A stretch of 32,000 nucleotides of DNA. Source: Candidatus Saccharimonadota bacterium (GTDB lineage Bacteria; Bacteroidota; Bacteroidia; Flavobacteriales; Blattabacteriaceae). Below are positions 11,974-30,604 of the stretch, piece after piece. Every line of letters starts with the position of its first letter. Position 1 is the stretch's first letter. The notes below the pieces were generated by a model. That model saw nothing but the letters and a program-made list of their open reading frames with translations, was not told the DNA's origin and ran no database searches. Position numbers and translations under genes: made by a program. The stretch lies in NCBI GenBank assembly GCA_029851085.1, contig CP100318.1, positions 30,001 to 62,000 of the forward strand, read 5' to 3'.

Positions 11974-12010
11974 AATAAATATTTAATATTTGTTAGTTAT
12001 TGTATATATT

Positions 12011-12028
12011 ATATATATATATATATAT
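12011..12028. repeat. (AT)9 microsatellite in the lpdA / RRM-protein divergent intergenic region
   Basis: Read directly as atatatatatatatatat, flanked by further imperfect TA repeats. Confidence 0.9.
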
Positions 12029-12078
12029 TAATTACAAAAATAAATTATATATTATAACAAAAATAAATTATATAAATT

Positions 12079-12330
12079 ATGAAATTGTACGTAGGTAATC
12101 TTCCCTATAAAGCATCAGAACAAGAAATAAAAAAATATTTTGAGTCTGTAGGAGAAGTAAATAGTGCAAAAATAATAACAGATAAATATAAAACTAGAAG
12201 CAAAGGTTTTGGTTTTATTGAAATGTCAAGTGAAGAAGCTGCTAAAAAAGCCATAAAAAAACTTAATGGAACACAATTTATGGGAAGAAATATAGTAGTA
12301 TCTGAAGCTAAACCTAAAAATGTCAATTAA
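12079..12330 (+). CDS. RRM-domain RNA-binding protein
   Basis: 83 aa with RNP-2 LYVGNL and RNP-1 KGFGFIEM. The layout is that of a single-RRM bacterial Rbp. Confidence 0.88.
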   Translation: MKLYVGNLPYKASEQEIKKYFESVGEVNSAKIITDKYKTRSKGFGFIEMSSEEAAKKAIKKLNGTQFMGRNIVVSEAKPKNVN

Positions 12331-13213
12331 TTTCCATGGTACAGGAGTGGCATTAGTTACTCCTTTTGATGAAAAAAAATCTATTGATTTTCATAATTTG
12401 GAAAAATTAATAAATTATGTAAATGAAAATGGAGTTGATTATTTAGTAATTTTAGGTACTACCGGAGAGTCAACTTCCTTAAATAAGGAAGAAAAAAATA
12501 AAGTAATTAAATTTGTAAAATCAGTTAATAATAATAATAAACCAATGATTTTAGGAATTGGAGGAAATAATACTGATATGGTAATTAAACAAATTAAACA
12601 AACTGATTTATATGATTTTCAAGCAATTCTGTCGGTAGTTCCCTATTATAATCGTCCAACACAAGAAGGAATATATAAACATTTTAAGACAATTGCTGAA
12701 AATACAGATGCAAATATAATTATATATAATGTTCCATGTAGAACATCTTCAAACATATTACCTGAAACTGTTTTGCGATTAGCTAATGAATTTGATAATA
12801 TTATTGGAATTAAAGAATCATCTGGAAATTTGATACAAATATTAAAAATAATAAAACATAAACCAAAAGATTTTTATGTAATATCAGGAGATGATTCATT
12901 AGTATTACCTATAATTTTTAGTGGAGGTGATGGAATTATATCGGTATTAGCTCAAGGTTTTCCAAAACATTTTTCAAATATGGTAGATCTTGCAATTAAA
13001 AATAATATGAAAGAATCATGGTCAATTTTCTATGAATTGGAAGATATGATAGAACTTATTTTTGAAGAAGGAAATCCTACAGGTATTAAAACATTGCTTA
13101 AAATTATAGGAATATGTAAACCTTATGTTAGATTACCATTAGTAGAAGGAACAAAAAAATTATATCAAAAAATTCTTTCATCATATGAAAGAATAATAAA
13201 CACTTTAAAATAA
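12320..13213 (+). CDS. dapA: 4-hydroxy-tetrahydrodipicolinate synthase
   Basis: 297 aa with GTGVALVTPF, LGTTGES, YNVPCRTS and GIKES (catalytic Lys region). Confidence 0.95.
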   Translation: MSINFHGTGVALVTPFDEKKSIDFHNLEKLINYVNENGVDYLVILGTTGESTSLNKEEKNKVIKFVKSVNNNNKPMILGIGGNNTDMVIKQIKQTDLYDFQAILSVVPYYNRPTQEGIYKHFKTIAENTDANIIIYNVPCRTSSNILPETVLRLANEFDNIIGIKESSGNLIQILKIIKHKPKDFYVISGDDSLVLPIIFSGGDGIISVLAQGFPKHFSNMVDLAIKNNMKESWSIFYELEDMIELIFEEGNPTGIKTLLKIIGICKPYVRLPLVEGTKKLYQKILSSYERIINTLK

Positions 13214-14073
13214 TGATAAAATATATTATATATATTTTATTATGTACATATTTATTTACGTCATGTAATAATTTAGATATAGATAATTTATCTAAAAAAA
13301 CAAAAGATGAATTAAATAATTCATTAAAATTTTTAGATTTATCTAAAAAAGAGAATATAAATTTTATTTTAAATAAGGAAAATAAAAAAACAAAAGATGA
13401 ATTAAATAATTCATTAAAATTTTTAGATTTATCTAAAAAAGAGAATATAAATTTTCTTTTAAATAAGGCCAATCTATTATACAATAATAAAAAATATGAT
13501 GAAGCTATAAAGTTATATACGTATTTACATATTGATAATATTTATATTCTATATAAAATAGCTTTGGCTAATTTTAAAAATAAAAATTATAATAAAGCAG
13601 TCTTACAGTTTAATAATTTTTTTGAATTATATAATAACAATAAATTAGTTAAAAGTTTAGCTGAAAAAGCATTATTAATGTCAGGATATTGTTATTATTT
13701 ATTATCACCTGATTATTATTTAGATCAAAAAAATACATATAATGCTATTTACCTATTTAAAAAATTTAAAAATTATTATCCTAATAATAAATATATAAAT
13801 ATGGTTAATACATTACTTGTAAAATTAAATAACAAAATTGAAATAAAAAAATTTAATTTAGCAAAATATTATTATGATTTATCTTATTATAAATCAGCTA
13901 TAATTTTTTTTAAAAATTTTATTAATGATTTTCCTAATTCTTTGTTAAAAGAAAAAGCTTTTTTTTATATGTTAAAATCTCAATATAAATTATATAATTA
14001 TAATCAATTAGAAAAATTGTATAATAATTTTATAGAAGAATTTATAAAAATTCTAAGTTATGAAAATATATGA
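13213..14073 (+). CDS. bamD: TPR-like outer-membrane lipoprotein, BamD(YfiO)-like
   Basis: Lipoprotein signal with lipobox (MIKYIIYILLCTYLFTSC). Contains TPR-like helices (YNNKKYDEAIKLY, YKIALANFKNKNYNKAVLQF, KYYYDLSYYKSAIIFFKNF). It is followed by an omega-like gene, as in Flavobacteriia. Carries an internal 30-aa duplication. Confidence 0.6.
   Translation: MIKYIIYILLCTYLFTSCNNLDIDNLSKKTKDELNNSLKFLDLSKKENINFILNKENKKTKDELNNSLKFLDLSKKENINFLLNKANLLYNNKKYDEAIKLYTYLHIDNIYILYKIALANFKNKNYNKAVLQFNNFFELYNNNKLVKSLAEKALLMSGYCYYLLSPDYYLDQKNTYNAIYLFKKFKNYYPNNKYINMVNTLLVKLNNKIEIKKFNLAKYYYDLSYYKSAIIFFKNFINDFPNSLLKEKAFFYMLKSQYKLYNYNQLEKLYNNFIEEFIKILSYENI
13294..13468 (+). repeat. 90-bp (30-codon) in-frame tandem duplication inside the BamD-like gene
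   Basis: Copy A runs 13294-13378 and copy B 13384-13468. I see one mismatch (13366 a versus 13456 c; Ile to Leu). Protein: KKTKDELNNSLKFLDLSKKENINF[I/L]LNK twice. Confidence 0.95.
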
Positions 14074-14371
14074 AAAAAAGGCTCCTAAAACAACTGTAAC
14101 GATTGATAGATATGAATTAGAAAAATGTGGAGAAAATATATTTTTTATAATAAATATTTTAAATAAAAGAGCTGATAAAATAAATAATATGATAAAGACA
14201 GAGTTAGATAAAAATTTAGAAAAGTTTAATTTTTTTGAAAAAATAAATGATTTATTTGAAAAAAAGGAAATAATTGAAATTTCAAAATTTTTTGAAAAAC
14301 TCCCTAAACCTACTTCTATTGCAATACAAGAATTTTTAGATGGAGAATTATTGTATTATAAAAACCAATGA
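14060..14371 (+). CDS. rpoZ: Bacteroidetes-type RNA polymerase omega-like protein (Rpb6/RpoZ family)
   Basis: 103 aa. SKFFEKLPKPTSIAIQEFLDG and NKRADKINNMIK resemble flavobacterial omega as I recall it, and the gene sits right after the bamD-like gene. This rests on recollection, not a search. Confidence 0.55.
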   Translation: MKIYEKKAPKTTVTIDRYELEKCGENIFFIINILNKRADKINNMIKTELDKNLEKFNFFEKINDLFEKKEIIEISKFFEKLPKPTSIAIQEFLDGELLYYKNQ

Positions 14372-14375
14372 TATG

Positions 14376-14448
14376 TGACCCGGCTGGGATTCGAACCCAG
14401 GACCCTTACATTAAAAGTGTAATGCTCTACCAACTGAGCTACCAGGTC
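14376..14448 (-). tRNA. tRNA-Lys (anticodon UUU)
   Basis: The reverse complement folds as a cloverleaf: acceptor GACCTGG/CCGGGTC, D arm GCTC-AGTTGGTA-GAGC, anticodon arm TTACA-CTTTTAA-TGTAA and T arm CTGGG-TTCGAAT-CCCAG. CCA is not encoded. Confidence 0.92.
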
Positions 14449-14492
14449 ATTTACTAATATAAAATTTTTTGAATAAAAATTGTTTATAACTA

Positions 14493-15801
14493 ATGTTATT
14501 TAATTATAAAAAACAAAAATTAATAAGTAATTTGTTACTTAAAAAAAAAAATTTTAGTAGCAGTTAGTGGAGGTGTAGATAGTATGGTTCTTCTACACGT
14601 ATTATACAATTTAGGAGTTTCGATAAAGGTAGCTCATTGCAATTTTAAACTTAGAGGAAAAGAATCAGATGAAGATGAGAGGTTTGTACATAGATTTTGT
14701 TTAAAACAAAAAATTGATTTTTATAGTAAATCATTTGATACTAATAAATATTCTATATCCAATAAACTATCTATTCAAATGGCTGCTCGTAAACTTAGGT
14801 ATGATTGGTTTGAAAAATTACTTCTAATGTTAGAATATAATTATGTAGCTATAGGACATCATTTAAATGATTCTATAGAAACATTTTTTATTAATCTTAT
14901 TAGAGGAACAGGAAAAAAGGGTTTATTAGGTATTTCAGAAATTAATGGTAAAATTATTCGTCCTATTTTATCTTTTACTAAAGAAGATATATTGAAATAT
15001 GCAAAAGAAAATAAAATAGAATGGCGTGAGGATAGTAGTAATAAAAGTATTAAATATTTACGTAATAATATTCGGAAACATATAGAACCTTTTAAAAATA
15101 TACCTAATTTTTATAATGGATTTAGAAAAACTATTCATAATTTATCATATGAATATTTGGTGTTAGAAAACCAATTAAAAATTGTTATTAAAAATATTAC
15201 TATAAAAAAATCTATAAATCCATTTATTTGGAAAATAAATTCTGAAATATTAAGTTCATTAGAACCAATAATTATTAATTTATTGTTTTTACCTTATGGT
15301 TTTAAAAATTTAAAAGATTTAATACGATTTTTAAACACACAATCAGGAAAACAATTGTTTTCAAAACATTATCGTTTAATTAAAGATAGAAATTGTATTA
15401 TATTAACAAAGAAATATTTAATAAATAAAAAAGTTTATAATATATTTGATTTATCTACTATTAGTGATCCTATTTATATGTCATTTTCAATTTCTATTAA
15501 AATAGATAAATTGGCTACAGCATCAGTAGATTTAGATATGCTTAAATTTCCTCTTAAATTAAGAATTTGGAAAAAAGGTGATTATTTTTATCCATTAGGA
15601 ATGCATAACAAGAAAAAAATAAGTAAATATTTAAAAGATGAAAAATTATCTCTTTTGGAAAAAGAAAAAATTTATTTATTGGTTAATTCAACAGAAGAGA
15701 TTATTTTGGTTTTAGGAAAACGTTTAGATGATAGATTTAAAGTTACTAATAATACAAAAAATGTATTAAATATAAATATTAATAATTATGAATGTTGGTA
15801 A
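14493..15801 (+). CDS. tilS: tRNA(Ile)-lysidine synthase TilS, frame-disrupted at an A11 tract (or using a non-ATG start)
   Basis: The PP-loop motif SGGVDS (14566-14583) lies upstream of the first in-frame ATG (14584), and that frame is closed by TAA at 14524. ATG at 14493 opens another frame (MLFNYKKQKLISNLLLKKK...). It joins the PP-loop frame if the A11 run (14541-14551) is read as A10, giving ...LLLKKKILVAVSGGVDSMVLL. Confidence 0.8.
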
Positions 15802-16438
15802 TTTATTTAAAATAAAATCAAATATTCCTTCATACGTAAAAATTATAGCTGTATCTAAAAATAAACCAATTTCTAAAATAAAAGAAATTTATGATGCTGG
15901 ACAACGTGATTTTGGTGAAAATTATATTAATGAACTTGTTGAAAAACATAAATCTCTTCCTAAAGATATTCGTTGGCATATGATTGGTAAATTACAAAGT
16001 AATAAAATAAAATATATAGGTAATTTTGTTTATTTAGTGCATAGTATAGAAAAAATAAAACATCTTAAAATACTTAATAAAGAAGCTATAAAACATAATA
16101 GAGTTATTCAATGTTTACTTCAAATAAAAATTGCTGAAGAAAAAAAAAAATCTGGTATTACATATTTAGAAGCTATTCAAATATTAAAATCTGATATTTA
16201 CTTAAACATGAAAAACGTTAAAATTATAGGTTTAATGGGTATTGCTACTTTTAGTCAAAATAAAAACAAAATTTCTGATGAATTTAAATATTTGTATCAA
16301 ATATTTAATATTTTTAAAGAAAAAAATAATGAATTTAATATTATTTCTATGGGTATGAGTAATGATTATAACATTGCAATAAAATGTGGAAGTAATATGA
16401 TTCGTATAGGAAATGCTATTTTTGGTTTTAGAAATTAA
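15788..16438 (+). CDS. yggS: YggS-family pyridoxal-phosphate homeostasis protein
   Basis: 216 aa with AVSKNKP (PLP Lys), FGENY, WHMIGKLQSNK and MGMSNDY. Confidence 0.88.
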   Translation: MNVGNLFKIKSNIPSYVKIIAVSKNKPISKIKEIYDAGQRDFGENYINELVEKHKSLPKDIRWHMIGKLQSNKIKYIGNFVYLVHSIEKIKHLKILNKEAIKHNRVIQCLLQIKIAEEKKKSGITYLEAIQILKSDIYLNMKNVKIIGLMGIATFSQNKNKISDEFKYLYQIFNIFKEKNNEFNIISMGMSNDYNIAIKCGSNMIRIGNAIFGFRN

Positions 16439-16443
16439 CAAAT

Positions 16444-17388
16444 ATGATAAAATATCCACGTATTGTATTTATAGGTACTACAGATTTTGCAGTAAAATCT
16501 TTAAAAAAATTAATAGAATTAAACTATTTAATATCATTAGTTATAACAATTCCAGATAAATTTTATAAAAATAAATTAATTGAATCAGCTGTTAAAAAAA
16601 TTGCATTATTATACAGATTACCTATTCTTCAACCAAAAAATCTTAAAGATCAAACGTTTTTAAATGAATTAAAATCATATAAAGCAGATTTACAAATTGT
16701 TGTAGATTTTCGAATGTTACCAAAAAAAGTATGGTCTTTACCTATTTTGGGTACTTTTAATCTACATGCATCATTGCTACCTCAGTATCGTGGTGCAGCA
16801 CCTATACAATGGGCGATTATTAATGGAGAAACTGAAACTGGATTAACTACTTTTTTTTTAGATGATAAAATTGATACAGGACATATTCTTTTACAAAAAA
16901 AAATTACAATAGGAATAAAAGAAACTGCTGGAAATTTATCTAATCGTATGGCATATATTGGTGCTGATCTAGTTATAGAAACTGTAAAAGGACTTGTAAA
17001 TAAAAATATAAAATCGATACCTCAACCTAAATGCAAAAATTTAAAAATTGCTCCAAAAATATATAGAAAAGATTGTCGTATTGATTGGAATCTTTCTATA
17101 GATTTTATTTTTAATAAAATACGTGGTTTTAGTCCTTATCCTGCTGCATGGACTTTATTATATTTAGATGAATATCCTTTACAATTTAAAATTTATCGTT
17201 CTGATATTATAAAACAAATACATAATAAATATATTAAAGAAATAATTATAACTAAGTCATCGATAAATATAGCTGTAAAAAATGGCTATATTCTAATTCT
17301 AGAAGGACAAATAGAAGGGAGACGAAAAATGTGTGCAATAGATATTATAAATGGAATAAAAAATAAAAAAAAATTATATATTGAATAA
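16444..17388 (+). CDS. fmt: Methionyl-tRNA formyltransferase
   Basis: 314 aa with RIVFIGTTDFAV and NLHASLLPQYRGAAPIQWAIINGETETG. Confidence 0.95.
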   Translation: MIKYPRIVFIGTTDFAVKSLKKLIELNYLISLVITIPDKFYKNKLIESAVKKIALLYRLPILQPKNLKDQTFLNELKSYKADLQIVVDFRMLPKKVWSLPILGTFNLHASLLPQYRGAAPIQWAIINGETETGLTTFFLDDKIDTGHILLQKKITIGIKETAGNLSNRMAYIGADLVIETVKGLVNKNIKSIPQPKCKNLKIAPKIYRKDCRIDWNLSIDFIFNKIRGFSPYPAAWTLLYLDEYPLQFKIYRSDIIKQIHNKYIKEIIITKSSINIAVKNGYILILEGQIEGRRKMCAIDIINGIKNKKKLYIE

Positions 17389-17405
17389 TATTATTTATCA
17401 TAATT

Positions 17406-17681
17406 ATGAATAAAACTGAATTAATAGATATTATTTCTGCAAAAACTGGATTTACAAAAGTTATTATTAAAAATATTATTGAAGCATTTATTTCTAGTGT
17501 TAAAGATACTTTATGCAAAGGAGAACGAATAAGTTTAATTGGTTTTATTACACTTTTTGTTGTAGAACGAAATGCAAGAAATGCTATAAATCCTAGAACA
17601 AAAGTTAAAATTTATATTCCTAAGAAAAAAGTTGTTAAAGTTAAAATAGGAACTGAATTAAATAATTTAATAAATAAATAA
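17406..17681 (+). CDS. hup: HU-family DNA-binding protein
   Basis: 91 aa. MNKTELIDIISAKTGFTK ... RNARNAINPRTKVKIYIPKKKVVKVKIG shows the HU/IHF fold signature. Confidence 0.9.
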   Translation: MNKTELIDIISAKTGFTKVIIKNIIEAFISSVKDTLCKGERISLIGFITLFVVERNARNAINPRTKVKIYIPKKKVVKVKIGTELNNLINK

Positions 17682-17683
17682 AA

Positions 17684-18745
17684 TTATTTTTTTAGTTTTT
17701 CTGCATTATAAGCTATTTTAATAGCATCAATCATTTCTTTAATATTACCACTCATAAATGAGTCTAAATTATATATTGATTTATTTATTCTATGATCTGT
17801 AACTCTATCTTGAATATAATTGTAAGTTCGTATTTTGTATGATCTGTCACCTGTATTTATTAAATATTTTCTTTCATTAGATCGTTCTTTTATTTTTTTG
17901 TTAAGTTGCATTTGATAAACTCTAGAGTATAATATTGTCATAGCTTTTTCCAAATTTTTATGTTGTGAACGTTGATCCTGACATTCTGCTACTATACCAC
18001 TAGGTATATGAGTTAAACGCACTGCAGATTCTGTTTTATTTACATGTTGTCCACCTGCTCCACTAGATCTAAAAGTATCTCTTTTTATTTCTGTTGGATT
18101 AATTTCAAAATCAATTTTTTTTATTTCAGGTAAAACTACTACAGTAACAGTAGATGTATGTACACGTCCTTGAGATTCAGTTTTAGGAATTCTTTGTACT
18201 CTGTGTACACCTGATTCAAATTTTAATGTTCCATAAACTCCATTTCCATATACACCTAAAATAACCTCTTTATATCCTTTTATAGATGATTTTTGTAAAT
18301 TAAGTATTTCACTAATCCAACCAATATATTTAAAATACATTGTATACATTCTAAAAATATCTTCTACAAATATACATGCTTCATCGCCTCCCGTTCCAGC
18401 ACGTAATTCCAAAATTACGTTTTTATCATCTTTAGAAGATTTAGGATATAATAAATGTTTAATTTGTTTTTCAATATTAGATAATGCTATTAAAGCATCA
18501 TTTTTTTCAGATTTAGCTATTTCTTTTATTTCTATATCTTCTGACATTGACGATAATATTTTATTAGCTTCATATATAATATTTTTTTTATTTTTATAAG
18601 TTTGATAAACTTTTATTATTTTTTCTAATTCTTTATATTTTCTGTATTTTTCTTTATCATATATTATAGTATTGTTAATTATCTTAGATAATTCATAAAA
18701 TTTTTTTTGAATATCTTGTAATTTTTCTATTAAAAATGTTTCCAT
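17684..18745 (-). CDS. prfA: Peptide chain release factor 1
   Basis: 353 aa with the RF1-type tripeptide region RIPKTESQGRVHTS (PxT) and the GGQ motif SGAGGQHVNKTESAVR. Confidence 0.95.
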   Translation of the reverse strand: METFLIEKLQDIQKKFYELSKIINNTIIYDKEKYRKYKELEKIIKVYQTYKNKKNIIYEANKILSSMSEDIEIKEIAKSEKNDALIALSNIEKQIKHLLYPKSSKDDKNVILELRAGTGGDEACIFVEDIFRMYTMYFKYIGWISEILNLQKSSIKGYKEVILGVYGNGVYGTLKFESGVHRVQRIPKTESQGRVHTSTVTVVVLPEIKKIDFEINPTEIKRDTFRSSGAGGQHVNKTESAVRLTHIPSGIVAECQDQRSQHKNLEKAMTILYSRVYQMQLNKKIKERSNERKYLINTGDRSYKIRTYNYIQDRVTDHRINKSIYNLDSFMSGNIKEMIDAIKIAYNAEKLKK

Positions 18746-18788
18746 TAAATTAATTTAATAATTATTATATTAAAGAATATTTTTAACT

Positions 18789-18814
18789 AAAACTGTTTTA
18801 AAAAACAGGTTTTT
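18789..18814 (+). promoter_or_regulatory. Bulged A/T hairpin plus T-run, one per 86-bp unit (first of nine; add 86 n for the others)
   Basis: In aaaaCTGTTTtaaaAAACAGgtttt, CTGTTT pairs with AAACAG, and the flanking AAAA/TTTT pair across a G bulge. It ends 8 nt before the ATG in each unit. It is terminator-like in both orientations but very A/T-rich and therefore weak. Confidence 0.4.
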
Positions 18815-18821
18815 AATATCA

Positions 18822-18839
18822 ATGTTTACAATAAATTAA
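18822..18839 (+). other. Decoy mini-ORF ATG TTT ACA ATA AAT TAA (MFTIN*), first of eight at 86-bp spacing
   Basis: ATGs fall at 18822, 18908, 18994, 19080, 19166, 19252, 19338 and 19424. The ninth in-phase ATG (19510) is the real rho start (MFNINELK...). Translation is not demonstrated. Confidence 0.4.
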
Positions 18840-19509
18840 TTTAATAATTATTATATTAAAGAATATTTTTAACTAAAACTGTTTTAAAAAACAGGTTTTT
18901 AATATCAATGTTTACAATAAATTAATTTAATAATTATTATATTAAAGAATATTTTTAACTAAAACTGTTTTAAAAAACAGGTTTTTAATATCAATGTTTA
19001 CAATAAATTAATTTAATAATTATTATATTAAAGAATATTTTTAACTAAAACTGTTTTAAAAAACAGGTTTTTAATATCAATGTTTACAATAAATTAATTT
19101 AATAATTATTATATTAAAGAATATTTTTAACTAAAACTGTTTTAAAAAACAGGTTTTTAATATCAATGTTTACAATAAATTAATTTAATAATTATTATAT
19201 TAAAGAATATTTTTAACTAAAACTGTTTTAAAAAACAGGTTTTTAATATCAATGTTTACAATAAATTAATTTAATAATTATTATATTAAAGAATATTTTT
19301 AACTAAAACTGTTTTAAAAAACAGGTTTTTAATATCAATGTTTACAATAAATTAATTTAATAATTATTATATTAAAGAATATTTTTAACTAAAACTGTTT
19401 TAAAAAACAGGTTTTTAATATCAATGTTTACAATAAATTAATTTAATAATTATTATATTAAAGAATATTTTTAACTAAAACTGTTTTAAAAAACAGGTTT
19501 TTAATATCA

Positions 19510-21120
19510 ATGTTTAATATCAATGAATTAAAAGGTAAAAAACTATTTGAATTACAAAAATTGGCTAAGTCATTAAAATTAAAAAATTATACTCAGCTAA
19601 GGAAAAATGATTTATTACAAAGAATTATAGAAAACATAAAAAAAACAGAATCAAAAGAATTTACTAAAAAAACAGAATCAAAAGAATTTACTAAAAAAAC
19701 AGAATCAACAGAATTTACTAAAAAAACAGAATCAAAAGAATTTACTAAAAAAACAGAATCAACAGAATTTACTAAAAAAACAGAATTTACTAAATTTCCT
19801 CAAAAAACAGAATCAAAAGAATTTACTAAAAAAACAGAATCAACAGAATTTCCTCAAAAAACAGAATCAAAAGAATTTACTAAAAAAACAGAATTTACTA
19901 AATTTCCTCAAAAAACAGAATCAAAAGAATTTACTCAAAAAACAGAATCAAAAGAATTTCCTAATAGGAAAAATAATTCAGAAATATATACTCGTTATAA
20001 TAATAGAAAATATAATGTAATTAGTGAAGGAGTATTGGAAATTATGGAAAATAATTATGGGTTTTCTAGGTCTTCTGATTATAATTATCTTGCATCACCA
20101 GATGATGTTTATGTTTCTCAATCTAAAATTAGATTATTTGGTCTAAAAACCGGTGATACAATAAAAGGAGAAGTACGTCCACCTAGAGAGGGAGAAAAAT
20201 ATTTACCTATAATAAGGATTATAGAAATTAATGGAAGGCCGCCTTCTTCTATTAAAGATAGAGCTTCTTTTGAACATTTAACTCCTTTATTTCCTAATGA
20301 AAAATTAAAATTAGCTGAAAAAAATGCTACATTATCAACACGAATAATAGATTTATTCACTCCTATAGGAAAAGGACAACGTGGTATGATTGTAGCTCCT
20401 CCAAAAACTGGAAAAACTACTTTATTAAAAGAAATAGCAAATGCTATTGCTGCAAATCATCCTGAAGTATACCTAATTATATTACTTATAGATGAACGTC
20501 CTGAGGAAGTTACTGATATGCAACGTAGTGTTAAAGCTGAAGTTATTGCTTCAACTTTCGATGAACCAGCTGAAAGACATGTTAAAGTAGTTAATATAGT
20601 TTCAGAAAAAGGAAAAAGAATGGTAGAATGTGGTCATGATGTATGTATTTTAGCAGATTCTATAACTCGTATGTCTCGTGCATTTAATACTGTTGCTCCA
20701 GCATCTGGAAAAATTCTTTCAGGAGGTATAGATGCAAATGCTTTACATAAGCCTAAAAGATTTTTTGGGGCAGCTAGAAATATAGAAAATGGTGGTTCTT
20801 TAACTATTATTGCAACAGCTTTGATAGATACTGGATCTAAAATGGATGATGTAATATTTGAAGAATTTAAAGGTACTGGAAATATGGAACTACAGTTAGA
20901 TAGAAGAATATGTAATAGAAGAATTTATCCTGCTATAGATTTAGTTTCTTCTAGTACTAGAAAGGATGATCTTTTGCTTGATGCTAATACATTGCAAAGA
21001 ATGTGGATTTTGCGAAAACATCTTTCTGATATGAATTCTACAGAGGCAATGGAATTTTTAATATCTCGTATTATTAGAACTAATAATAATATAGAATTTT
21101 TAAATTCTATGAATAGTTAA
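19510..21120 (+). CDS. rho: Transcription termination factor Rho with a repeat-built N-terminal insertion
   Basis: 536 aa. Features are the Rho_N helix bundle ([35 protein letters not shown]), the OB/CSD RNA-binding domain ([16 protein letters not shown]...), Walker [11 protein letters not shown] and an ATPase core running through ...RRIYPAIDL. Confidence 0.96.
19639..19962 (+). repeat. About 12 tandem copies of a 27-bp / 9-aa unit (consensus KKTESKEFT) inside rho
   Basis: aaaaaaacagaatcaaaagaatttact is iterated with variants ([31 protein letters not shown]). It sits between the Rho_N helix bundle and the OB fold. Confidence 0.95.
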
Positions 21121-21514
21121 ACTTAAATGCTTTTTTAATTTTATTTGAAATAAATAAAAATGTATCCTTTGATAAGGATTTTCTTCTTAAAGAAAAATCT
21201 AAATCACTTTCTTTATCCATAGGTATTAAATGTATATGCGCATGAGGTATTTTAAATCCCATTACAACTAAACCTACACGTTGACATGATATTGTTTTTT
21301 CTATGCTTAAAGCTACCTTTCTAACAAAAATCATTAATTTTGAAAACTCTTTTTCTTCTAATTTAAATAAATTATTTATTTCTTTTTTAGGAATAACTAA
21401 AGTATGTCCTATTTTTAGAGGATAAATATCCAAAAATGCTAAATGATTTTTATCTTCAGCTACTTCATAAGCAGGAATATTTTTATTAATTATTTGTGTA
21501 AATAATGAAGACAT
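21107..21514 (-). CDS. HIT-family (histidine triad) nucleotide hydrolase/transferase
   Basis: 135 aa with the histidine triad HAHIHLIP and N-terminal [28 protein letters not shown]. Confidence 0.88.
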
Positions 21515-21516
21515 TA

Positions 21517-21981
21517 TTAACTTATTTCTAATATTTCATAATCTATAATAGTATTATTAGGTAATTTTATATGAGCTATTTCACCAACTTTTTTTCCTAA
21601 TAAACCTAAAGAAATAGGAGTATTTATAGATATTTTACCAATTTGAAGATTTGATTCTTCTTCAGGTACCAAAGTATATATATGTTCACTACCATATTTT
21701 ATATTTTTTATTTTTACAGTAGATAATATAAAAACTTTTGAATTAGATAATTTAGAACTATCTATTATACGTACAGTAGATAACTTTTCTTTTAATTTTC
21801 TAATATGTATTTCTAAAAAAAATTGTGCTTCTTTTGCAGCATGGTATTCAGCATTTTCTGATAAATCTCCTTTATCACGTGCTTCAGCTATTTGTGAAGA
21901 TATACGTCTACGTTCGATATTTTCTAAATGTTCTAACTTTTTACGTAATTTATTTAATCCTTCTTTAGTAAGATATGTCAT
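21517..21981 (-). CDS. greA: Transcription elongation factor GreA
   Basis: 154 aa. LTKEGLNKLRKKLEHLE...ARDKGDLSENAEYHAAKEAQ is the coiled-coil acidic tip, followed by the C-terminal FKBP-like domain. Confidence 0.92.
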   Translation of the reverse strand: MTYLTKEGLNKLRKKLEHLENIERRRISSQIAEARDKGDLSENAEYHAAKEAQFFLEIHIRKLKEKLSTVRIIDSSKLSNSKVFILSTVKIKNIKYGSEHIYTLVPEEESNLQIGKISINTPISLGLLGKKVGEIAHIKLPNNTIIDYEILEIS

Positions 21982-22042
21982 AATTTAATATTGAACATAA
22001 ATAACAGAATTAATATATACAATATTTTTTTTATATTTATAA

Positions 22043-22056
22043 ATATATATATATAT
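22043..22056. repeat. (AT)7 microsatellite in the greA / rpsT divergent intergenic region
   Basis: Read directly as atatatatatatat. Confidence 0.85.
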
Positions 22057-22082
22057 TAAATATTTAAATAATTTTATAACAT

Positions 22083-22328
22083 ATGGCAAATAACAAATCA
22101 TCTATGAAAAGAATACGCCAGAATAAAATGATACGATTGCGTAAAAAATATTATCATAAGTCTACACGTACAGCCATCAAAAAATTTAAAGTAGGTAAAA
22201 ATGTTAAGTATTCTACTATTGTATCAATGTTAGATAAATTATCTAAAAAAAATATTATACATAAAAATAAAGCTGCTAGATTAAAAAGTAAATTAGCCAA
22301 AATGATGGCCCATTCGTCTATTGGTTAG
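22083..22328 (+). CDS. rpsT: 30S ribosomal protein S20 (3' end and stop codon lie inside tRNA-Glu)
   Basis: 81 aa. MANNKSSMKRIRQNK...KNIIHKNKAARLKSKLAK is S20-like. There is no stop until TAG at 22326-22328, 20 nt into the tRNA. Confidence 0.88.
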   Translation: MANNKSSMKRIRQNKMIRLRKKYYHKSTRTAIKKFKVGKNVKYSTIVSMLDKLSKKNIIHKNKAARLKSKLAKMMAHSSIG

Positions 22329-22378
22329 GACATCAGATTTTCATTCTGAAAAGAGGGGTTCGATTCCCCTATGGGCTA
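22307..22378 (+). tRNA. tRNA-Glu (anticodon UUC)
   Basis: Cloverleaf: acceptor GGCCCAT/ATGGGCT (G1-U72 wobble), D arm GTCT-ATTGGTTA-GGAC, anticodon arm TCAGA-TTTTCAT-TCTGA and T arm AGGGG-TTCGATT-CCCCT. CCA is not encoded. Confidence 0.88.
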
Positions 22379-22403
22379 CATATATTGAAATTATTGATTG
22401 TAT

Positions 22404-23708
22404 TTATTTTTTTCTAAAATGAATTCCTATAGGAATTCCTTTGAATTTAAAAAAATAACGTATTTTATTTTCTATAAATTTTTTGTATGAATATTTAATA
22501 TAATTAGGAAAATTAGTAAAAAAAACAAATTGGGGAGTATATGTTGGTAATTGAGTACAATATTTGATTGTAATAAATTTTCCTTTAACAGAAGGTGGAG
22601 GTGTATTTTTTATTAAAGGTAATAAAGTTTGATTTAAAACACTAGTTTTAATTTTTAATTTTCTATTTTCATATAATTGTATAGCATATTCCATCATTGG
22701 AAGTATACCTTTTTTATTTATTGAAGAAATAAAAAAAATAGGAACATCTTTGAAGTGTTTAATTTTATTTAAAATTAAATTTTTATATAATTTATTTGTA
22801 TCATTTTTTTTTTCAATTAAATCCCATTTATTAATTAATATTAATATTCCTTTATTATTATTAATAATAATATTTAATATATTAGTATCTTGAGATTCCC
22901 ATCCTCTAGTAGCATCAATCATCAATAAACAAACATCAGCATTTTCAATAGATTTAATAGTTCGTATTACTGCATAAAATTCTAAATTATTATATAATTT
23001 AGATTTTTTACGAATTCCAGCAGTATCTATAAGTATACATTTAAATCCAAATAGATTATAATATATATCTATAGGATCTCTAGTAGTTCCTGGAATATTA
23101 GTAACAATATTACGATTTTCCATAAGTAATGTATTAATAAGTGTAGATTTACCTACATTTGGACGACCTACTATAGCTATTTTAGGTAAATTTTCATTTT
23201 TTTTATATTGTATTTCTTTAGGAAAAGTTTTTAATAATTCATCTAAAAGATCTCCTGTTCCACTACCATTTATAGATGAAATTGAATAATATTTATCAAA
23301 TCCTAATTTATAAAAATCTGTATTATTATATATATTTTTAATACTATCAATTTTATTAACTGCTAAAATAATTGGTTTATGTTCTTTTCTAAGAATTTTT
23401 GCTATTTCAATATCAATATCTATTAATCCTGTGGTAACATCTACCATAAAAATAATTGAATTAGCTTCTTTTATAGCAAAAAATATTTGTTTACGCATTT
23501 CTTCTTCAATTATATTGTTATTTTTTAATGTATATCCTCCTGTATCAATAACAGAAAATTTTATACCATTCCAATAAGATTCTCCGTAATGTCTATCTCT
23601 AGTTACACCACTGACTCTATCAACAATAGCTTTACGATGTCCTAACAGACGATTAAATAATGTTGATTTTCCAACATTAGGACGTCCTACAATAGCAGCT
23701 ATATTCAT
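22404..23708 (-). CDS. der: Ribosome-associated GTPase Der (EngA)
   Basis: 434 aa with two tandem GTPase domains, each carrying GRPNVGKSTL, plus a C-terminal KH-like domain. Confidence 0.95.
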   Translation of the reverse strand: MNIAAIVGRPNVGKSTLFNRLLGHRKAIVDRVSGVTRDRHYGESYWNGIKFSVIDTGGYTLKNNNIIEEEMRKQIFFAIKEANSIIFMVDVTTGLIDIDIEIAKILRKEHKPIILAVNKIDSIKNIYNNTDFYKLGFDKYYSISSINGSGTGDLLDELLKTFPKEIQYKKNENLPKIAIVGRPNVGKSTLINTLLMENRNIVTNIPGTTRDPIDIYYNLFGFKCILIDTAGIRKKSKLYNNLEFYAVIRTIKSIENADVCLLMIDATRGWESQDTNILNIIINNNKGILILINKWDLIEKKNDTNKLYKNLILNKIKHFKDVPIFFISSINKKGILPMMEYAIQLYENRKLKIKTSVLNQTLLPLIKNTPPPSVKGKFITIKYCTQLPTYTPQFVFFTNFPNYIKYSYKKFIENKIRYFFKFKGIPIGIHFRKK

Positions 23709-23728
23709 AATTTTGTTATAATTAAAAT

Positions 23729-25231
23729 TTAATTTATTTTTTTAAAAGCTTTTCCTAAATTATCTGCTATATCTCCTGCTATTAATCCTTCTAAACTTGT
23801 ATATTGTACAACAATATCTGCAGATAATCCATGTAAATATACTCCTAAAATACAAGCTTCTTTGTGTAAATATCCTTGAGATAATAAACTTAAAATTACT
23901 CCTGTAAGAACATCTCCACTACCAGCAGTAGCCATTCCTGGATTTCCTGTACTATTAAAATAAAGTGTACCATTAGGAGTAACTGTAATAGTATATGCTC
24001 CTTTTAAGATAATATAAAATCCATTTTTATGAGCAAAATTTTTTAACATTTCTAATTTAGAATAATCATTTTTCCAATCACCAACTAAACGATTAAATTC
24101 TTTAGGATGTGGAGTTAAAATAGTATTTTTTGGTACATTTGATATTAATGTAGGATTTTCAGAAAGTATATTAATGGCATCAGCATCTATAACTAATGGA
24201 GTTTTTATTTTTAATAAATAATCTTTTAAAAGATTAACATTTTCTAATTTTTTGCCTAATCCAGTACCTATTGCTATTGCATTGGCAATATTAGGATTTG
24301 GAAAATTTTCCCAATTATTATTTAATATAATAGCTTCAGGAATTGCAATTTGTATTATTTTATGTCCAAATAAAGGTGTATGTATACTTAATTTACCAAT
24401 ACCACTCCGTAAAGATCCTTTTGCACTTAATATAACAGATCCTATCATTCCATAATCACCACCTATTAGAAGACCATGTCCAAAAGTGCCTTTATGTGAA
24501 AATTTTTTACGTTTTTTATAAATTGATTTTATTAAAAAATAATCTACGTAATAATTTGTAGTTTTAAATTTTAAAAAAATATTTTCTAAATATTTTTTAG
24601 GTAAAAATTCTAATACATGCCATCTACCTACATATTTATATAATTCTGGTAATAAAAATGCTAATTTAGGTGCGTAAAAACTAAGTGTATGATTAGCTTT
24701 AATAATTCCTTTATAATTTTGTATTGGTTTTTCTGCAAAAAGACCCGATGGCATATCTATAGATATAATATTATCTATATTTTGATTTATATATTCAATT
24801 AAATTTTCCCAATATCCTTTTATTGGTTTATTAATACCAATTCCAAAAAGTGAATCAATAAGTATGTTATTTTTTTTAATTGAAAAATATGTATCTCCTT
24901 CATATAAATCATTAATTACTACATTCATTTCCTTAAGTCGATTCAAATTTAAATAAAATTCTTGTGAATAAGAGTTTGTAATATTAGCTATGTATATTTT
25001 TACTTTTGCTTTAATATTTATAAGCATTCTTCCTATAGCTAAACCATCACCTCCATTATTACCTTTTCCCGATAATATTATAAATTGTTTTTCTTTTATA
25101 TTAAAATTTGAATTTATCCAATTAAAACAAGCTGTTGCAGCTTTTTCCATTAAATTAATAGGAGTAATTGGTAGATTTTTTATTATATAATCATCTATAT
25201 TTTTAATATTTTCTGAAGAAAATATATTCAT
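23729..25231 (-). CDS. nnr: Bifunctional NAD(P)H-hydrate repair enzyme Nnr (epimerase + ADP-dependent dehydratase)
   Basis: 500 aa with the YjeF_N motif SGKGNNGGDGLAIGR and the C-terminal carbohydrate-kinase motif TAGSGDVLTGVI. Confidence 0.85.
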   Translation of the reverse strand: MNIFSSENIKNIDDYIIKNLPITPINLMEKAATACFNWINSNFNIKEKQFIILSGKGNNGGDGLAIGRMLINIKAKVKIYIANITNSYSQEFYLNLNRLKEMNVVINDLYEGDTYFSIKKNNILIDSLFGIGINKPIKGYWENLIEYINQNIDNIISIDMPSGLFAEKPIQNYKGIIKANHTLSFYAPKLAFLLPELYKYVGRWHVLEFLPKKYLENIFLKFKTTNYYVDYFLIKSIYKKRKKFSHKGTFGHGLLIGGDYGMIGSVILSAKGSLRSGIGKLSIHTPLFGHKIIQIAIPEAIILNNNWENFPNPNIANAIAIGTGLGKKLENVNLLKDYLLKIKTPLVIDADAINILSENPTLISNVPKNTILTPHPKEFNRLVGDWKNDYSKLEMLKNFAHKNGFYIILKGAYTITVTPNGTLYFNSTGNPGMATAGSGDVLTGVILSLLSQGYLHKEACILGVYLHGLSADIVVQYTSLEGLIAGDIADNLGKAFKKIN

Positions 25232-25298
25232 ACTATTTATTGTTAAAAAATAATAGCAAAAATATAATATTATATTAAATTTATATAAATTTAATTAT

Positions 25299-26369
25299 AT
25301 GAATTATTCAATTAATTCTGAATCAGAATTTTTTTTAAAAAAATATTTGAATACAGCTTCACCTAGTGGTTATGAAATTAATAGTCAACAATTATGGAAA
25401 AAATATATTAATCCTTATGTTGATAATATTAATGTAGATATTTATGGAACTGTTGTCGGTATAATTAATCCTAATAAAAATTATAAAATATTAATTGAAG
25501 CTCATGCTGATGAAATTTCTTGGTATGTTAATTATATAACAGATAATGGATTTATTTATGTTATTCGTAATGGAGGATCAGACCCTCAAATAGCTCCTTC
25601 TAAACGTGTATATATACATACTAAAAAAGGTTTAGTTAATGGTATTTTTGGATGGCCTGCTATTCATACAAGAAAATCTTTAGAAGAAAAATCACCTAAG
25701 GTAAATAATTTATTTATAGATATAGGTGCATCTAATAAAAAAGAAGTTGAAGATTTAGGAGTTCATATAGGTTGTATAATATCTTATGTAGATGAATGTT
25801 TTATATTAAATAATAAATATTATGTATCTCGTGCTTTAGATAATAAAATTGGTGGGTTTATAATAGCTGAAGTAATTAAATTAATAAAATTAAATAATGT
25901 AAAATTACCATTTTCTTTATATGTTGTTAATGCAGTTCAAGAAGAAGTTGGATTAAGAGGTGCTAAAATGATAACTAATGTAATTAAACCTAATTTGGCT
26001 ATAGTTACTGACGTAGCTCATGATACTTTTATTCCTATGGTTGAAAATGAAGTAGATATAAAATGTGGATTAGGTCCAATAATAAATTATGCACCTTCAG
26101 TACATAATTTTTTACGTGAATTTATATTAAATTTAGCTATAGAAAATAAAATATCTTTTCAACGTTTGGCATCTCAAATTACTGGAACTGATAATGATGT
26201 TATTGCTTATTCTAATGGTGGTGTAATTTCTAGTTTAATATCAATACCATTGCGTTATATGCATACTACAGTTGAAATGGTTTCTAAAAAAGATGTTGAA
26301 GAAACAATAAAACTTATTTATACTATTATTTTAAATATAAATCCAAATCAAAATTGGAATTATTTTTAA
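25299..26369 (+). CDS. M42-family metallo-aminopeptidase (glutamyl aminopeptidase / FrvX-like)
   Basis: 356 aa with SPSGYE, EAHADEI, SRALDNKIG and VQEEVGLRGA, typical of M42. Confidence 0.8.
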   Translation: MNYSINSESEFFLKKYLNTASPSGYEINSQQLWKKYINPYVDNINVDIYGTVVGIINPNKNYKILIEAHADEISWYVNYITDNGFIYVIRNGGSDPQIAPSKRVYIHTKKGLVNGIFGWPAIHTRKSLEEKSPKVNNLFIDIGASNKKEVEDLGVHIGCIISYVDECFILNNKYYVSRALDNKIGGFIIAEVIKLIKLNNVKLPFSLYVVNAVQEEVGLRGAKMITNVIKPNLAIVTDVAHDTFIPMVENEVDIKCGLGPIINYAPSVHNFLREFILNLAIENKISFQRLASQITGTDNDVIAYSNGGVISSLISIPLRYMHTTVEMVSKKDVEETIKLIYTIILNINPNQNWNYF

Positions 26370-29876: not shown

Positions 29877-30604
29877 TCATAGGCTAAATATATATTATTA
29901 GGTAATTCTTGTTCTACTATTGCATGAAATCCTAAAAGATGACTAATATGTGTTAAATATGTTTTTTTTGGTTTTAGTATTTCTATTAATTTTAATGATT
30001 CTGATAAAATAAAATGAGATTTATGTTTAGGTTTTTTTCTTAAAGAATTTAAAATTAAAATTTCTAGTCCTTTCAATTTATTAATTGTTTCATTAGGAAT
30101 AAAATTAGCATCAGTAATATATGCAATATTATTTATACGATATCCTAATATTGGTAATTTTCCATGCATAATCAGTAATGGCATTATTTCTATGTTAGAA
30201 ATAGAAAATGTTATATATGTTTCAATATTGATTAATTGAACATTAAATTTTTTTTCTTCTGAAAAGAAATAAAAAAATCTTTTTTTTAAAATTTCTAATG
30301 TTCTAGGTAATCCATATATATAAATTTTTTTTTTATTAATTGGATAAATATCATCTAATCCTGATATATGATCATTATGTTCATGTGTTAGTAATATAGC
30401 ATCTATATTATTATTTTTACTACGTAACATTTGATATCTAAAATCAGGACCACAATCTATTAAAATATTTGTATTTTTTTTTTTTATTAAAATAGAACTT
30501 CTTAATCTTTTATCTTTAAAATCTGTAGACAAACAAATAGGATTTGTTAATCCTATTACTGGAATACCTTGAGAAGTTCCAGTTCCTAAAAATGTTATTT
30601 TCAT
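29855..30604 (-). CDS. MBL-fold metallo-hydrolase (PhnP-like)
   Basis: 249 aa with MKITFLGTGTSQGIP and the zinc motif THEHNDH. Confidence 0.78.
   Translation of the reverse strand: MKITFLGTGTSQGIPVIGLTNPICLSTDFKDKRLRSSILIKKKNTNILIDCGPDFRYQMLRSKNNNIDAILLTHEHNDHISGLDDIYPINKKKIYIYGLPRTLEILKKRFFYFFSEEKKFNVQLINIETYITFSISNIEIMPLLIMHGKLPILGYRINNIAYITDANFIPNETINKLKGLEILILNSLRKKPKHKSHFILSESLKLIEILKPKKTYLTHISHLLGFHAIVEQELPNNIYLAYDCLILNL

Follow-up and report, generated by a model that had tools for sequence, protein, structure and literature searches.

prfA, rho, and the spacer between them

We analyzed a window of 32,000 nucleotides (nt), positions 30,001 to 62,000 of the forward strand of contig CP100318.1 (GCA_029851085.1), and all coordinates given here refer to it. 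The window comes from Candidatus Bostrichicola ureolyticus LBRU, a Bacteroidota endosymbiont of the beetle Lyctus brunneus with a 337-kb genome. Two divergent genes encode the termination factors at this locus: prfA (17684 to 18745, minus strand; start codon at 18743 to 18745), which specifies the 353-amino-acid peptide chain release factor 1 (RF1), and rho (19510 to 21120, plus strand), which specifies the 536-amino-acid transcription termination factor Rho. Both were assigned from their open reading frames and NCBIfam models, with a score of 444 bits against an equivalog cutoff of 400 for RF1 (NF001859/TIGR00019) and of 656 bits against a cutoff of 315 for Rho (NF006886/TIGR00767). The prfA product is identical to WGH27916.1 of Ca. 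Bostrichicola ureolyticus. An exact look-up of the LBRU Rho protein returned no record, one likely reason being that short-read assembly breaks inside a 27-bp array within rho. A gene for HU lies nearby, at 17406 to 17681.

The two genes are separated by 764 bp. Between open reading frames of at least 80 amino acids elsewhere in the window, gaps are mostly 1 to 105 bp, with three of 195 to 240 bp, and the prfA-rho gap is more than three times as long as the next largest. The range of about 20 to 100 bp given in the initial annotation was therefore somewhat too narrow, but the gap is the outlier it was taken for.

An 86-bp unit repeated without mismatch

The gap is filled by a perfect head-to-tail array of an 86-bp unit at 18746 to 19516 (771 bp, 8.97 copies), delimited as the maximal run in which each base equals the base 86 positions further on. 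As assembled, the copies contain no mismatch. The perfect run begins directly next to the prfA start codon and takes in the first 7 nt of rho (ATGTTTA) at its other end, so that, in the assembled sequence, the copy number and the edges agree with the initial annotation. Tandem Repeats Finder (TRF) reports the array at 18735 to 19516 (period 86, 9.1 copies, 99% matches, score 1550), its extra 11 left-hand bases being an imperfect match within prfA. A 44-nt core of the unit matched nine times in the window and not once in 100 dinucleotide-preserving shuffles; the perfect array is far above chance expectation. We discarded the idea of hidden coding capacity: the interior of the array has no open reading frame of 20 amino acids or more, 86 is not a multiple of 3, and the array is noncoding. 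The search for the 86-mer elsewhere, which the initial annotation had proposed, found no second copy in the 32-kb window and no 16-mer shared with sequence outside the array. Exact-core scans of genome and metagenome contig collections gave no match either, Bostrichicola genomes being evidently absent from both collections.

Read from the left edge, the first unit (18746 to 18831, plus strand) consists of 76 nt of spacer, the bases ATGTTTA (rho +1 to +7), and CAA. In an alignment with the spacers of the L. cavicollis symbiont (LCAV) and the symbionts of D. minutus and D. porcellus, this closing CAA corresponds to the left end of the ancestral spacer. Judged by that alignment, the biologically sensible register of the unit is CAATAAATT...ATCAATGTTTA, and the left end in LCAV reads CAT-TC-CAATAAATT. 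Each unit ends in AATGTTT. The motif also occurs within prfA codons 2 to 4 on the reverse strand (18735 to 18741, given as read on the plus strand; seen in the sequence, the TRF extension, and the register table), exactly one period (86 bp) farther left, and a 7-nt direct repeat thus bounds the array.

Translation and periodicity show that every unit carries a decoy rho start, ATG TTT ACA ATA AAT TAA (MFTIN*), the first at 18822 to 18839 on the plus strand. The eight decoys recur every 86 bp (18822, 18908, 18994, 19080, 19166, 19252, 19338, and 19424), and the ninth ATG of the series, at 19510, is the genuine rho start. There are two palindromes per unit. One of them, the imperfect palindrome AAAACTGTTTT/AAAACAGGTTT (18789 to 18812 in the first unit), forms a weak hairpin of 6 bp with a T run after it and falls below the pass mark of the terminator scan. 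It is specific to Lyctus symbionts, with only partial counterparts in the Dinoderus symbionts.

Sister strains carry a single spacer

In the search for a fifth strain (L. africanus), cluster look-ups yielded only four complete strains, namely, LBRU, LCAV, and the symbionts of D. minutus and D. porcellus, plus a 750-bp fragment that stops short of the locus. A further candidate, P0124, proved to come from the D. porcellus symbiont, as a Nanopore fragment with many errors. The assembled copy number is about nine in LBRU and one in each of the other three strains, all of which have intact rho and prfA. The single-copy spacers measure 99 bp in LCAV, which is 97 to 98% identical to LBRU, 90 bp in the D. 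minutus symbiont, and 85 bp in the D. porcellus symbiont, and only short blocks are conserved among them. According to their alignment with the array, the 86-bp unit comprises 79 of the ∼81 ancestral spacer bases plus the first 7 bases of rho. The unit is thus essentially the one ancestral spacer that the initial annotation had taken it to be exactly, though with a few spacer bases missing and the rho bases added. The comparison with related symbionts, also suggested there, finds the array not conserved.

Over 12,386 aligned bases, LBRU and LCAV are separated by 163 substitutions (1.3%) and 43 indels. Had the array existed since the two strains diverged, about 5 substitutions would be expected in it, and it holds none. 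Since the array is missing from a strain only ∼1.3% substitutions away, the sequence comparison dates its expansion as recent, after the divergence of LBRU and LCAV, in line with the very recent expansion proposed at the outset.

Further arrays around rho and in the Lyctus symbionts

The 86-bp array is not the only repeat at the 5′ end of rho. TRF detects a 13-bp unit, TTTAATATCAATG, in two copies across the rho start codon (19500 to 19525, plus strand). In LCAV this unit is present in at least 8 copies plus a gap of 239 N (L005, 5572 to 5649 and 5889 to 5901), and there too the units repeat the rho start, reading MNNINV* in the one unit that was translated and, as inferred, MFNINV* in the consensus. 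The 13-bp duplication is older than the LBRU/LCAV split, and it accounts for the hotspot. Inside rho, 122 bp from the 86-bp array, lies an in-frame 27-bp array of 12.1 imperfect copies (19639 to 19964, plus strand; 87% matches). The encoded KTESKEFTK-type units separate the N-terminal helix bundle of Rho from its RNA-binding domain. This array is specific to LBRU; in the protein alignment, the other three strains have one such unit and a Rho of 441 to 443 amino acids.

LBRU has one more array in the window, of 90 bp in two copies (13293 to 13468), and its arrays reach TRF scores of 1550, 505, and 345. The arrays of LCAV are the 13-mer at the rho start, a perfect 9-mer, and a 57-mer, each of which flanks an N run. 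In the Dinoderus loci, repeats are weak and low in copy number, none scoring above 113 in TRF. Of the three LCAV arrays, two share their sites with LBRU arrays but differ from them in unit length, which indicates hotspots that expanded independently. Over the 13 to 32 kb compared, the sequences indicate that the Lyctus-associated symbionts are prone to tandem repeats and indels relative to the Dinoderus strains, a lineage-specific excess of the kind that marks an instability syndrome.

A young minisatellite as the most probable explanation

Taken together, we consider the array to be most probably (at roughly 65%) a young, strain-specific minisatellite, i.e., a tolerated slippage accident in a repeat-prone lineage and not a dedicated control device. 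It has the usual properties of a minisatellite or variable-number tandem repeat (VNTR): head-to-tail units of ∼10 to 100 bp, a copy number that varies between close strains, and a noncoding location. In the lineage leading to LBRU, an 86-bp segment covering nearly the whole spacer and 7 nt of rho would first have undergone a tandem duplication and later have grown to about nine copies, presumably through slippage during replication, unequal exchange between sister chromosomes, or both. The AATGTTT repeat, with copies one period apart at the array edge, fits a slipped-strand or microhomology-mediated duplication. However, a simple origin from this microhomology, which we considered and set aside, predicts the junction CCAT, whereas the junction seen is ACAA, which matches the ancestral spacer in LCAV (CCAATAAATT). 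Such an origin would therefore call for a further step: two subsequent substitutions, or else the loss of 5 nt from the left edge.

The anatomy of the array suggests why it could be tolerated: when a divergent spacer is copied in tandem as a whole, both genes keep their native upstream bases, of which the first 76 for prfA and ∼79 for rho are unchanged. We infer that it is close to neutral. The expansion would have added eight extra sets of any promoters in the spacer, eight MFTIN* decoy starts, and eight weak hairpins, elements whose effect on the levels of Rho and RF1 is probably mild at most and not under selection. The array would then be one symptom of the repeat- and indel-prone mutational regime in Lyctus-associated symbionts, and since their genomes hold several other young arrays, a mutational explanation is sufficient.

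Regulation of Rho and RF1

The initial annotation had read the copy number as possibly setting or attenuating the dosage of Rho and RF1. We found no evidence in support of such control, which we consider unlikely. The unit contains 5 C and 5 G per 86 nt on either strand, with no C-over-G bias; its predicted folds were no better than those of shuffled sequences (z from −0.75 to +0.57), the terminator scan found no terminator-like site, and an Rfam scan of 18300 to 20100 at an E value of ≤1 gave no matches. Structured RNA or an intrinsic terminator in each unit was rejected on these grounds, the only candidate being the weak 6-bp hairpin. An autoregulatory Rho leader was likewise set aside, since C-rich, G-poor loading sites are lacking and each unit contains a translatable mini-open reading frame; nor is there the conservation expected of a leader or attenuator, given that the array is missing in three of the four strains.

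Bacteroidota are not expected to use the σ70 consensus. Matches to this consensus were fewer than in shuffles (13 versus 18.7). A σ70-like site (TTTACA/18 nt/TATTAT) is created at each unit junction, and its −35 element is not positionally conserved in LCAV; with the total below the shuffle expectation as well, we did not count σ70-type promoters as evidence.

The initial annotation had also stressed that the flanking genes both encode termination factors. Among 80 rho loci of free-living Bacteroidota, RF1 was found within 3 kb of rho in none, which makes the pairing look like an accident of genome reduction. No high-scoring array lies directly against the rho start in any of 80 Bacteroidota rho loci.

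The strongest competing explanation, which we nevertheless regard as unlikely, is an adaptive expression rheostat, in which the 86-mer array of LBRU and the 13-mer array of LCAV were selected and their copy number tunes Rho and possibly RF1. Extra promoter copies could raise transcription, or else the eight decoy starts with their mini-open reading frames and the weak hairpins, set in long leaders, could throttle translation or attenuate transcripts. The anatomy lends this some appeal, in that every unit contains the complete upstream context of rho with its start codon, the LCAV units likewise multiply the rho start, and a σ70-like site arises at each junction. Moreover, two sister strains have between them three independent arrays that touch the rho 5′ end (the 86-mer and 27-mer in LBRU and the 13-mer in LCAV): the two noncoding ones, with different units and independent origins in strains 97 to 98% identical, both multiply the rho start codon, and the third changes the N-terminal linker of Rho. 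This coincidence could reflect selection on Rho output beyond what a hotspot alone would produce. On the other side, three of the four strains do without the 86-bp array while keeping intact rho and prfA, the scans for promoters, structure, terminators, Rfam families, and C-over-G bias speak against the rheostat, arrays also occur at unrelated sites of these genomes, and the 13-bp duplication that predates the strain split explains why rho is a hotspot.

We are somewhat more doubtful still of a recurrent selection on Rho output that was met by independent start-codon arrays (86-bp units in LBRU, 13-bp units in LCAV), and just as doubtful that such selection worked through decoy initiation sites, each with a mini-open reading frame of 5 to 6 codons, stacked before the real start. 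If it did, slippage-driven copy number in polyploid symbiont populations would be a heritable, reversible dial on Rho, which might reach RF1 through the shared spacer and would replace the lost control by transcription factors.

Is the array present in the reads?

The initial annotation had allowed for an assembly artifact. In that case, hybrid assembly would have overexpanded a loop in the graph, and the true genome would have one spacer of ∼81 to 86 bp or just two or three copies. The perfect identity of all copies would suit this idea, as would the facts that nine is the count of the assembly, that 771 bp is beyond the span of short reads, and that N runs at arrays in the sister LCAV record show such loci to be hard to assemble. 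Against it, an independent k = 31 assembly of Illumina data (Logan contig L001 of L. brunneus run SRR19201365) is 100% identical to the window and ends 30 nt into the array. A stop after exactly k − 1 bases marks a branching node, meaning that the first 30 bases of the repeat have at least two left contexts and that there are at least two copies. The Logan contig also ends inside the 27-bp array of rho, at 19906. The array reads ACAA at its internal junction but CCAT at its left edge, and one spacer could not give both. In addition, the published genome from the L. brunneus host drew on MinION (Nanopore) reads, assembled in hybrid mode (PMC10284843). The repeat is present in the raw reads and a pure artifact is unlikely, and we regard overexpansion from one to three copies as very improbable; the perfect identity, however, may be partly a product of short-read polishing or hybrid assembly.

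A mobile or dispersed element of the MIRU or REP type was rejected because the window has no further copy and the unit is homologous to the native spacer. Scarcely credible is an iteron-like array whose repeats bind a protein, e.g., at a replication origin or a nucleoid-organizing site: nine identical AT-rich units with two palindromes each and the nearby HU gene give it a superficial resemblance, but the cumulative GC skew has no inflection at the array, syntenic sister genomes that must also replicate lack it, and the unit is a local spacer, neither dispersed nor a conserved motif.

Significance

As a young minisatellite, the array offers a clean, datable case of new sequence arising in tiny endosymbiont genomes that are supposedly static: since a strain divergence of ∼1%, an entire divergent control region, together with a start codon, appears to have been amplified ninefold. 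It would flag Lyctus-associated Bostrichicola as a second “unstable” lineage of obligate symbionts, after Portiera of Bemisia. Young arrays also explain the assembly gaps in the sister LCAV genome (CP100320.1), and the 86-bp locus, the rho 27-mer, and the LCAV 13-mer arrays are good candidate VNTR markers for population studies of these symbionts. Were copy number to affect the levels of Rho or RF1, the array would be a repeat-based substitute for lost regulators, an effect that none of our findings requires.

Comparison with known systems

In Escherichia coli, rho is autoregulated through its leader by Rho-dependent attenuation. The array resembles that leader in lying in, or creating, a long region upstream of rho that is possibly transcribed as a leader, but it is not C-rich and G-poor, has no conserved counterpart, and shows no structure or terminator signal.

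Contingency repeats, such as the 7-bp repeats upstream of the hmw genes of Haemophilus influenzae, have units of 1 to 10 bp, alter promoter spacing or distance, and occur in free-living pathogens, in their surface or virulence genes. Like these, the array consists of tandem repeats upstream of a gene, whose copy number slippage can change, and such changes can affect expression. Unlike them, it has an 86-bp unit next to essential housekeeping genes, and in its case an effect on expression is only hypothetical; phase variation of this type was rejected for the unit length and because the proximal 76 to 79 bp of each gene are unchanged.

Bacterial minisatellites or VNTRs are intergenic head-to-tail units of tens of bases whose copy number differs between close strains, and MIRU/VNTR units can hold tiny open reading frames that abut the start or stop codons of flanking genes. 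Mycobacterial interspersed repetitive units (MIRUs) form a family dispersed over many loci, most of them within operons, whereas the 86-bp array occupies one locus (with no other copy in the window), lies between divergent genes, and derives from the local spacer.

The closest counterpart is Candidatus Portiera aleyrodidarum of Bemisia tabaci, in which intergenic tandem repeats proliferated along with the loss of replication and repair genes (Sloan and Moran 2013, PMC3673631). For Portiera, the loss of repair genes such as dnaQ is documented, and its instability was interpreted as a result of degraded replication and repair (PMC3673631). Portiera is a gammaproteobacterium, whereas Bostrichicola belongs to the Bacteroidota, and the repeats of Portiera are mostly 7-bp microsatellites in a study that considered units of up to 40 bp (PMC3673631), while the Bostrichicola unit of 86 bp is a recognizable whole divergent control region with its start codon. 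Both are nevertheless obligate insect endosymbionts with genomes of ∼0.3 Mb, and in both, one lineage stands out from its relatives by perfect intergenic tandem repeats, an indel-rich spectrum, and swollen spacers.

The prfA-rho spacer is a perfect 86-bp tandem array

The genes for RF1 (prfA; minus strand, 17684-18745) and Rho (rho; plus strand, 19510-21120), both above their NCBIfam equivalog cutoffs, are separated by a 764-bp gap. A perfect period-86 run covers positions 18746-19516 (771 bp, 8.97 units) without a single mismatch between copies, in full agreement with the initial annotation, which had placed about nine identical copies from immediately next to the prfA start codon to a point 7 nt into rho. 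The 44-nt core of the unit matched nine times in the window, compared with zero matches in 100 dinucleotide-preserving shuffles, and no ORF of at least 20 amino acids was found within the array. Elsewhere in the window, gaps between ORFs of at least 80 amino acids are mostly 1 to 105 bp long, with three of 195 to 240 bp. The prfA-rho gap is thus over three times the size of the next largest and was rightly called an outlier, although the remaining gaps are not all in the range of about 20 to 100 bp given for them. At their 3' ends, rho and a convergent HIT-family gene (21107-21514, minus strand) overlap by 14 bp (21107-21120), showing that the rest of the region is tightly packed, in contrast to the array.

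The window has a G+C content of 21.6%, and its RF1 is identical to WGH27916.1 from "Candidatus Bostrichicola ureolyticus" (337,436-bp genome). We compared the locus with Logan contigs, an independent short-read assembly of Illumina run SRR19201365 from the powder-post beetle Lyctus brunneus (PMC10284843); these contigs match the window across the flanking genes for 5,350 and 7,609 bp, with 100% identity. The prfA-side contig stops at 18775, exactly 30 nt past the prfA start codon. A contig from a k=31 de Bruijn graph halts in this way when two different k-mers lead into the next one, so the reads must contain at least two different sequences to the left of the unit's first 30 bases. These are ...CCAT at the array edge and ...ACAA inside it, a pair that a single spacer could not produce. 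The rho-side contig stops at 19906, inside a second array of 27-bp units within rho. For L. brunneus, MinION reads (SRR19201357) were obtained as well and used in a hybrid assembly (PMC10284843); this Nanopore support and the contig break make a pure assembly artifact unlikely. The array is therefore real at least as a repeat, with about nine copies as the assembled count. Short-read polishing homogenizes tandem copies and could contribute to their perfect identity. The genome paper (PMC10284843) mentions neither the prfA-rho repeat, nor tandem repeats in general, nor rho, and a 2025 preprint on Bacteroidota symbionts mentions neither tandem repeats nor rho.

The array is strain specific and young

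All four Bostrichicola strains on record were compared at prfA-rho. The symbionts of Dinoderus minutus (loci L002 and L003) and, with the host inferred, Dinoderus porcellus (CP100319.1, locus L006) have single spacers of 90 and 85 bp, respectively, and a Rho of 441 amino acids, whereas the L. brunneus strain encodes a Rho of 536 amino acids next to its 764-bp spacer. The Lyctus cavicollis symbiont (CP100320.1, locus L005; host inferred) has a 413-bp spacer and a Rho of 443 amino acids. This last strain is 97 to 98% identical to the window, with 163 substitutions in 12,386 aligned bases and 43 indels (11983-25355 versus L005). In its 413-bp gap, a single 99-bp homolog of the 86-bp unit precedes an array of tandem 13-bp units. 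Since the homologous spacer is present only once, the 86-bp array is specific to the L. brunneus strain and younger than the split between the two. Had the array been as old as the split, about 5 substitutions would be expected (771 × 0.0066), compared with 0 observed (Poisson P of ∼0.006, or ∼0.04 with the lower divergence of individual BLAST segments). The array is thus young and derived from the native spacer, which bears out the recent expansion proposed initially; as for sharing among related symbionts, the copy number comparison found it absent from three of the four strains.

The divergent prfA-rho adjacency itself is kept in all four strains. Within 3 kb, it occurs at none of 80 free-living Bacteroidota rho loci (L009 to L088), and gene loss, rather than an ancient regulatory pairing, probably brought the two genes together.

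Anatomy and origin of the unit

In the spacer alignment, the L. brunneus unit lacks 10-bp and 8-bp segments that the L. cavicollis spacer has, which puts the ancestral L. brunneus spacer at ∼81 bp. When the left end in L. cavicollis (CAT-TC-CAATAAATTAATTT) is set against the internal junction in L. brunneus (ATGTTTA-CAATAAATTAATTT), the most fitting description of the unit is 79 of the 81 spacer bases (CAATAAATT...ATATCA) joined to the first 7 bases of rho (ATGTTTA). Its initial description as exactly one ancestral spacer was therefore close. The left-most copy lacks 5 bases (TCCAA) relative to L. cavicollis, and after this loss the AATGTTT of prfA codons 2 to 4 (18735-18741) sits exactly one period left of the AATGTTT of the unit. 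This explains why TRF, through an imperfect match reaching into prfA, extends the array 11 bases further left (18735-19516, 9.1 copies, 99% matches, score 1550). The 7-nt direct repeat is compatible with slipped-strand or microhomology-mediated duplication. Such a duplication predicts a CCAT junction, whereas ACAA is observed; this could reflect either two substitutions after the first duplication or an ancestral spacer sequence with a later 5-nt loss at the left edge.

Slippage or unequal exchange probably created the array and expanded it. Because the divergent spacer was duplicated whole, each gene retains its native bases directly upstream (76 for prfA and ∼79 for rho), so that essential expression would not be broken; this probably explains why the array persists. 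The extra copies also multiply candidate promoters, decoy starts, and weak hairpins, which may shift Rho or RF1 levels somewhat. On the plus strand, each unit carries a decoy rho start, ATG TTT ACA ATA AAT TAA (MFTIN*), where the real Rho begins MFNINE. The true start at 19510 thus comes after eight decoys, located at 18822 + 86n. Read on the minus strand, the internal junction is TTG TAA, and prfA has no decoy reading frame. All four strains share a 15-nt block, ATTATATTAAAGAAT, without change; it recurs in every unit and is the best candidate for a real control element.

Other arrays point to a repeat-prone lineage

The window has exactly two copies of the 13-bp unit TTTAATATCAATG, which span the rho start (19500-19525). 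In L. cavicollis (L005 5572-5649 and 5889-5901), ∼1.3 copies are followed by 239 N and then six copies, the last of which supplies the opening codons of rho. Each duplication of the 13-mer regenerates an in-frame ATG for the next copy, and the Rho N terminus is thus kept. These 13-mers are also decoy rho starts at 13-nt spacing, with upstream units encoding a six-codon mini-ORF; the variant unit just before the rho start translates to MNNINV*, and the consensus unit, as read from its sequence, would encode MFNINV*.

At most 122 bp from the 86-bp array, an in-frame 27-bp array within rho (19639-19964; 12.1 copies, 87% matches) codes for KTESKEFTK-type units, which lie in Rho after the N-terminal helix bundle and before the RNA-binding domain. 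This unit is single in the three other strains (Rho of 441 to 443 versus 536 amino acids). Divergence among the 27-bp copies exceeds what would be expected from the 1.3% by which the strains differ in flanking sequence. Several free-living Bacteroidota loci (e.g., L061, L040, and L045) likewise have coding repeats in the N-terminal insertion of Rho.

Further repeats lie outside rho. A 90-bp repeat (two copies, 45-bp subperiod; 13293-13468) is located inside a YfiO/BamD-like gene (13213-14073), where L. cavicollis has a 57-bp array with a 57-N gap (L005 11449-11697). A perfect 9-bp array, TATCATTTG, in L. cavicollis has 9.7 and 6.1 copies around a 49-N gap (L005 10372-10562; window ∼14364) and runs into a 121-amino-acid hypothetical gene (L005 10508-10871); at this site, 186 bp are missing from the L. 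brunneus strain. The three N runs of this 13-kb locus (239, 49, and 57 bases) fall within the 13-mer, perfect 9-mer, and 57-mer arrays, respectively, and are presumably repeat gaps left by an Illumina-only assembly. Two of the three L. cavicollis arrays occupy the same sites as L. brunneus arrays but differ in unit length, which indicates independent expansion at shared hotspots. In the syntenic loci of the Dinoderus symbionts, repeats are only weak and low in copy number (TRF scores of ≤113). The indel-to-substitution ratio between the two Lyctus strains is high (∼1:4), and many indels are coding and multiples of 3, suggesting a slippage-dominated mutation spectrum.

A regulatory role is not supported

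The initial annotation had also proposed that copy number sets or attenuates Rho/RF1 dosage, possibly through Rho autoregulation. In its favor, the noncoding array at this locus in each Lyctus strain contains repeated copies of the rho start site, and a third array alters the N-terminal linker of Rho. However, a hotspot explains these repeated hits on the rho 5' end as well as selection does, because the arrays are few and the 13-bp duplication was already at the rho start in the common ancestor. Further points against dosage control and Rho autoregulation are the three strains without the array, the 80 free-living loci without the gene pair, and the lack of a C-over-G bias in the unit (5 C, 5 G). 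Nor does the unit show a structural signal: of two AT-rich palindromes, one gives a weak 6-bp hairpin followed by T's, which does not pass a terminator scan; RNA folds of the unit are no better than those of shuffles, and an Rfam search of the locus gave no match. There is no sign that any shift in Rho or RF1 levels is selected. A σ70-like site (TTTACA/18/TATTAT) is formed at each unit junction; it is not treated as a promoter here, as scan hits were rarer than in shuffles (13 versus 18.7) and its position is not conserved in L. cavicollis. The original observation is thus confirmed and its interpretation partly supported, being right on structure and recency, with regulation unsupported.

Comparison with known systems

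The tested features of a Rho leader attenuator, a contingency-type promoter repeat, an iteron origin, and a dispersed repeat family were not found in the 86-bp array, which does fit the definition of a bacterial minisatellite (VNTR). In Portiera of Bemisia tabaci, the loss of genes for replication and repair goes together with tandem repeats in intergenic DNA and with swollen spacers (PMC3673631). The Lyctus-associated Bostrichicola strains match this "unstable endosymbiont" pattern in repeats and indels. What sets this case apart is that the unit comprises an entire divergent control region together with a start codon, and that a sister strain carries a parallel 13-mer array.
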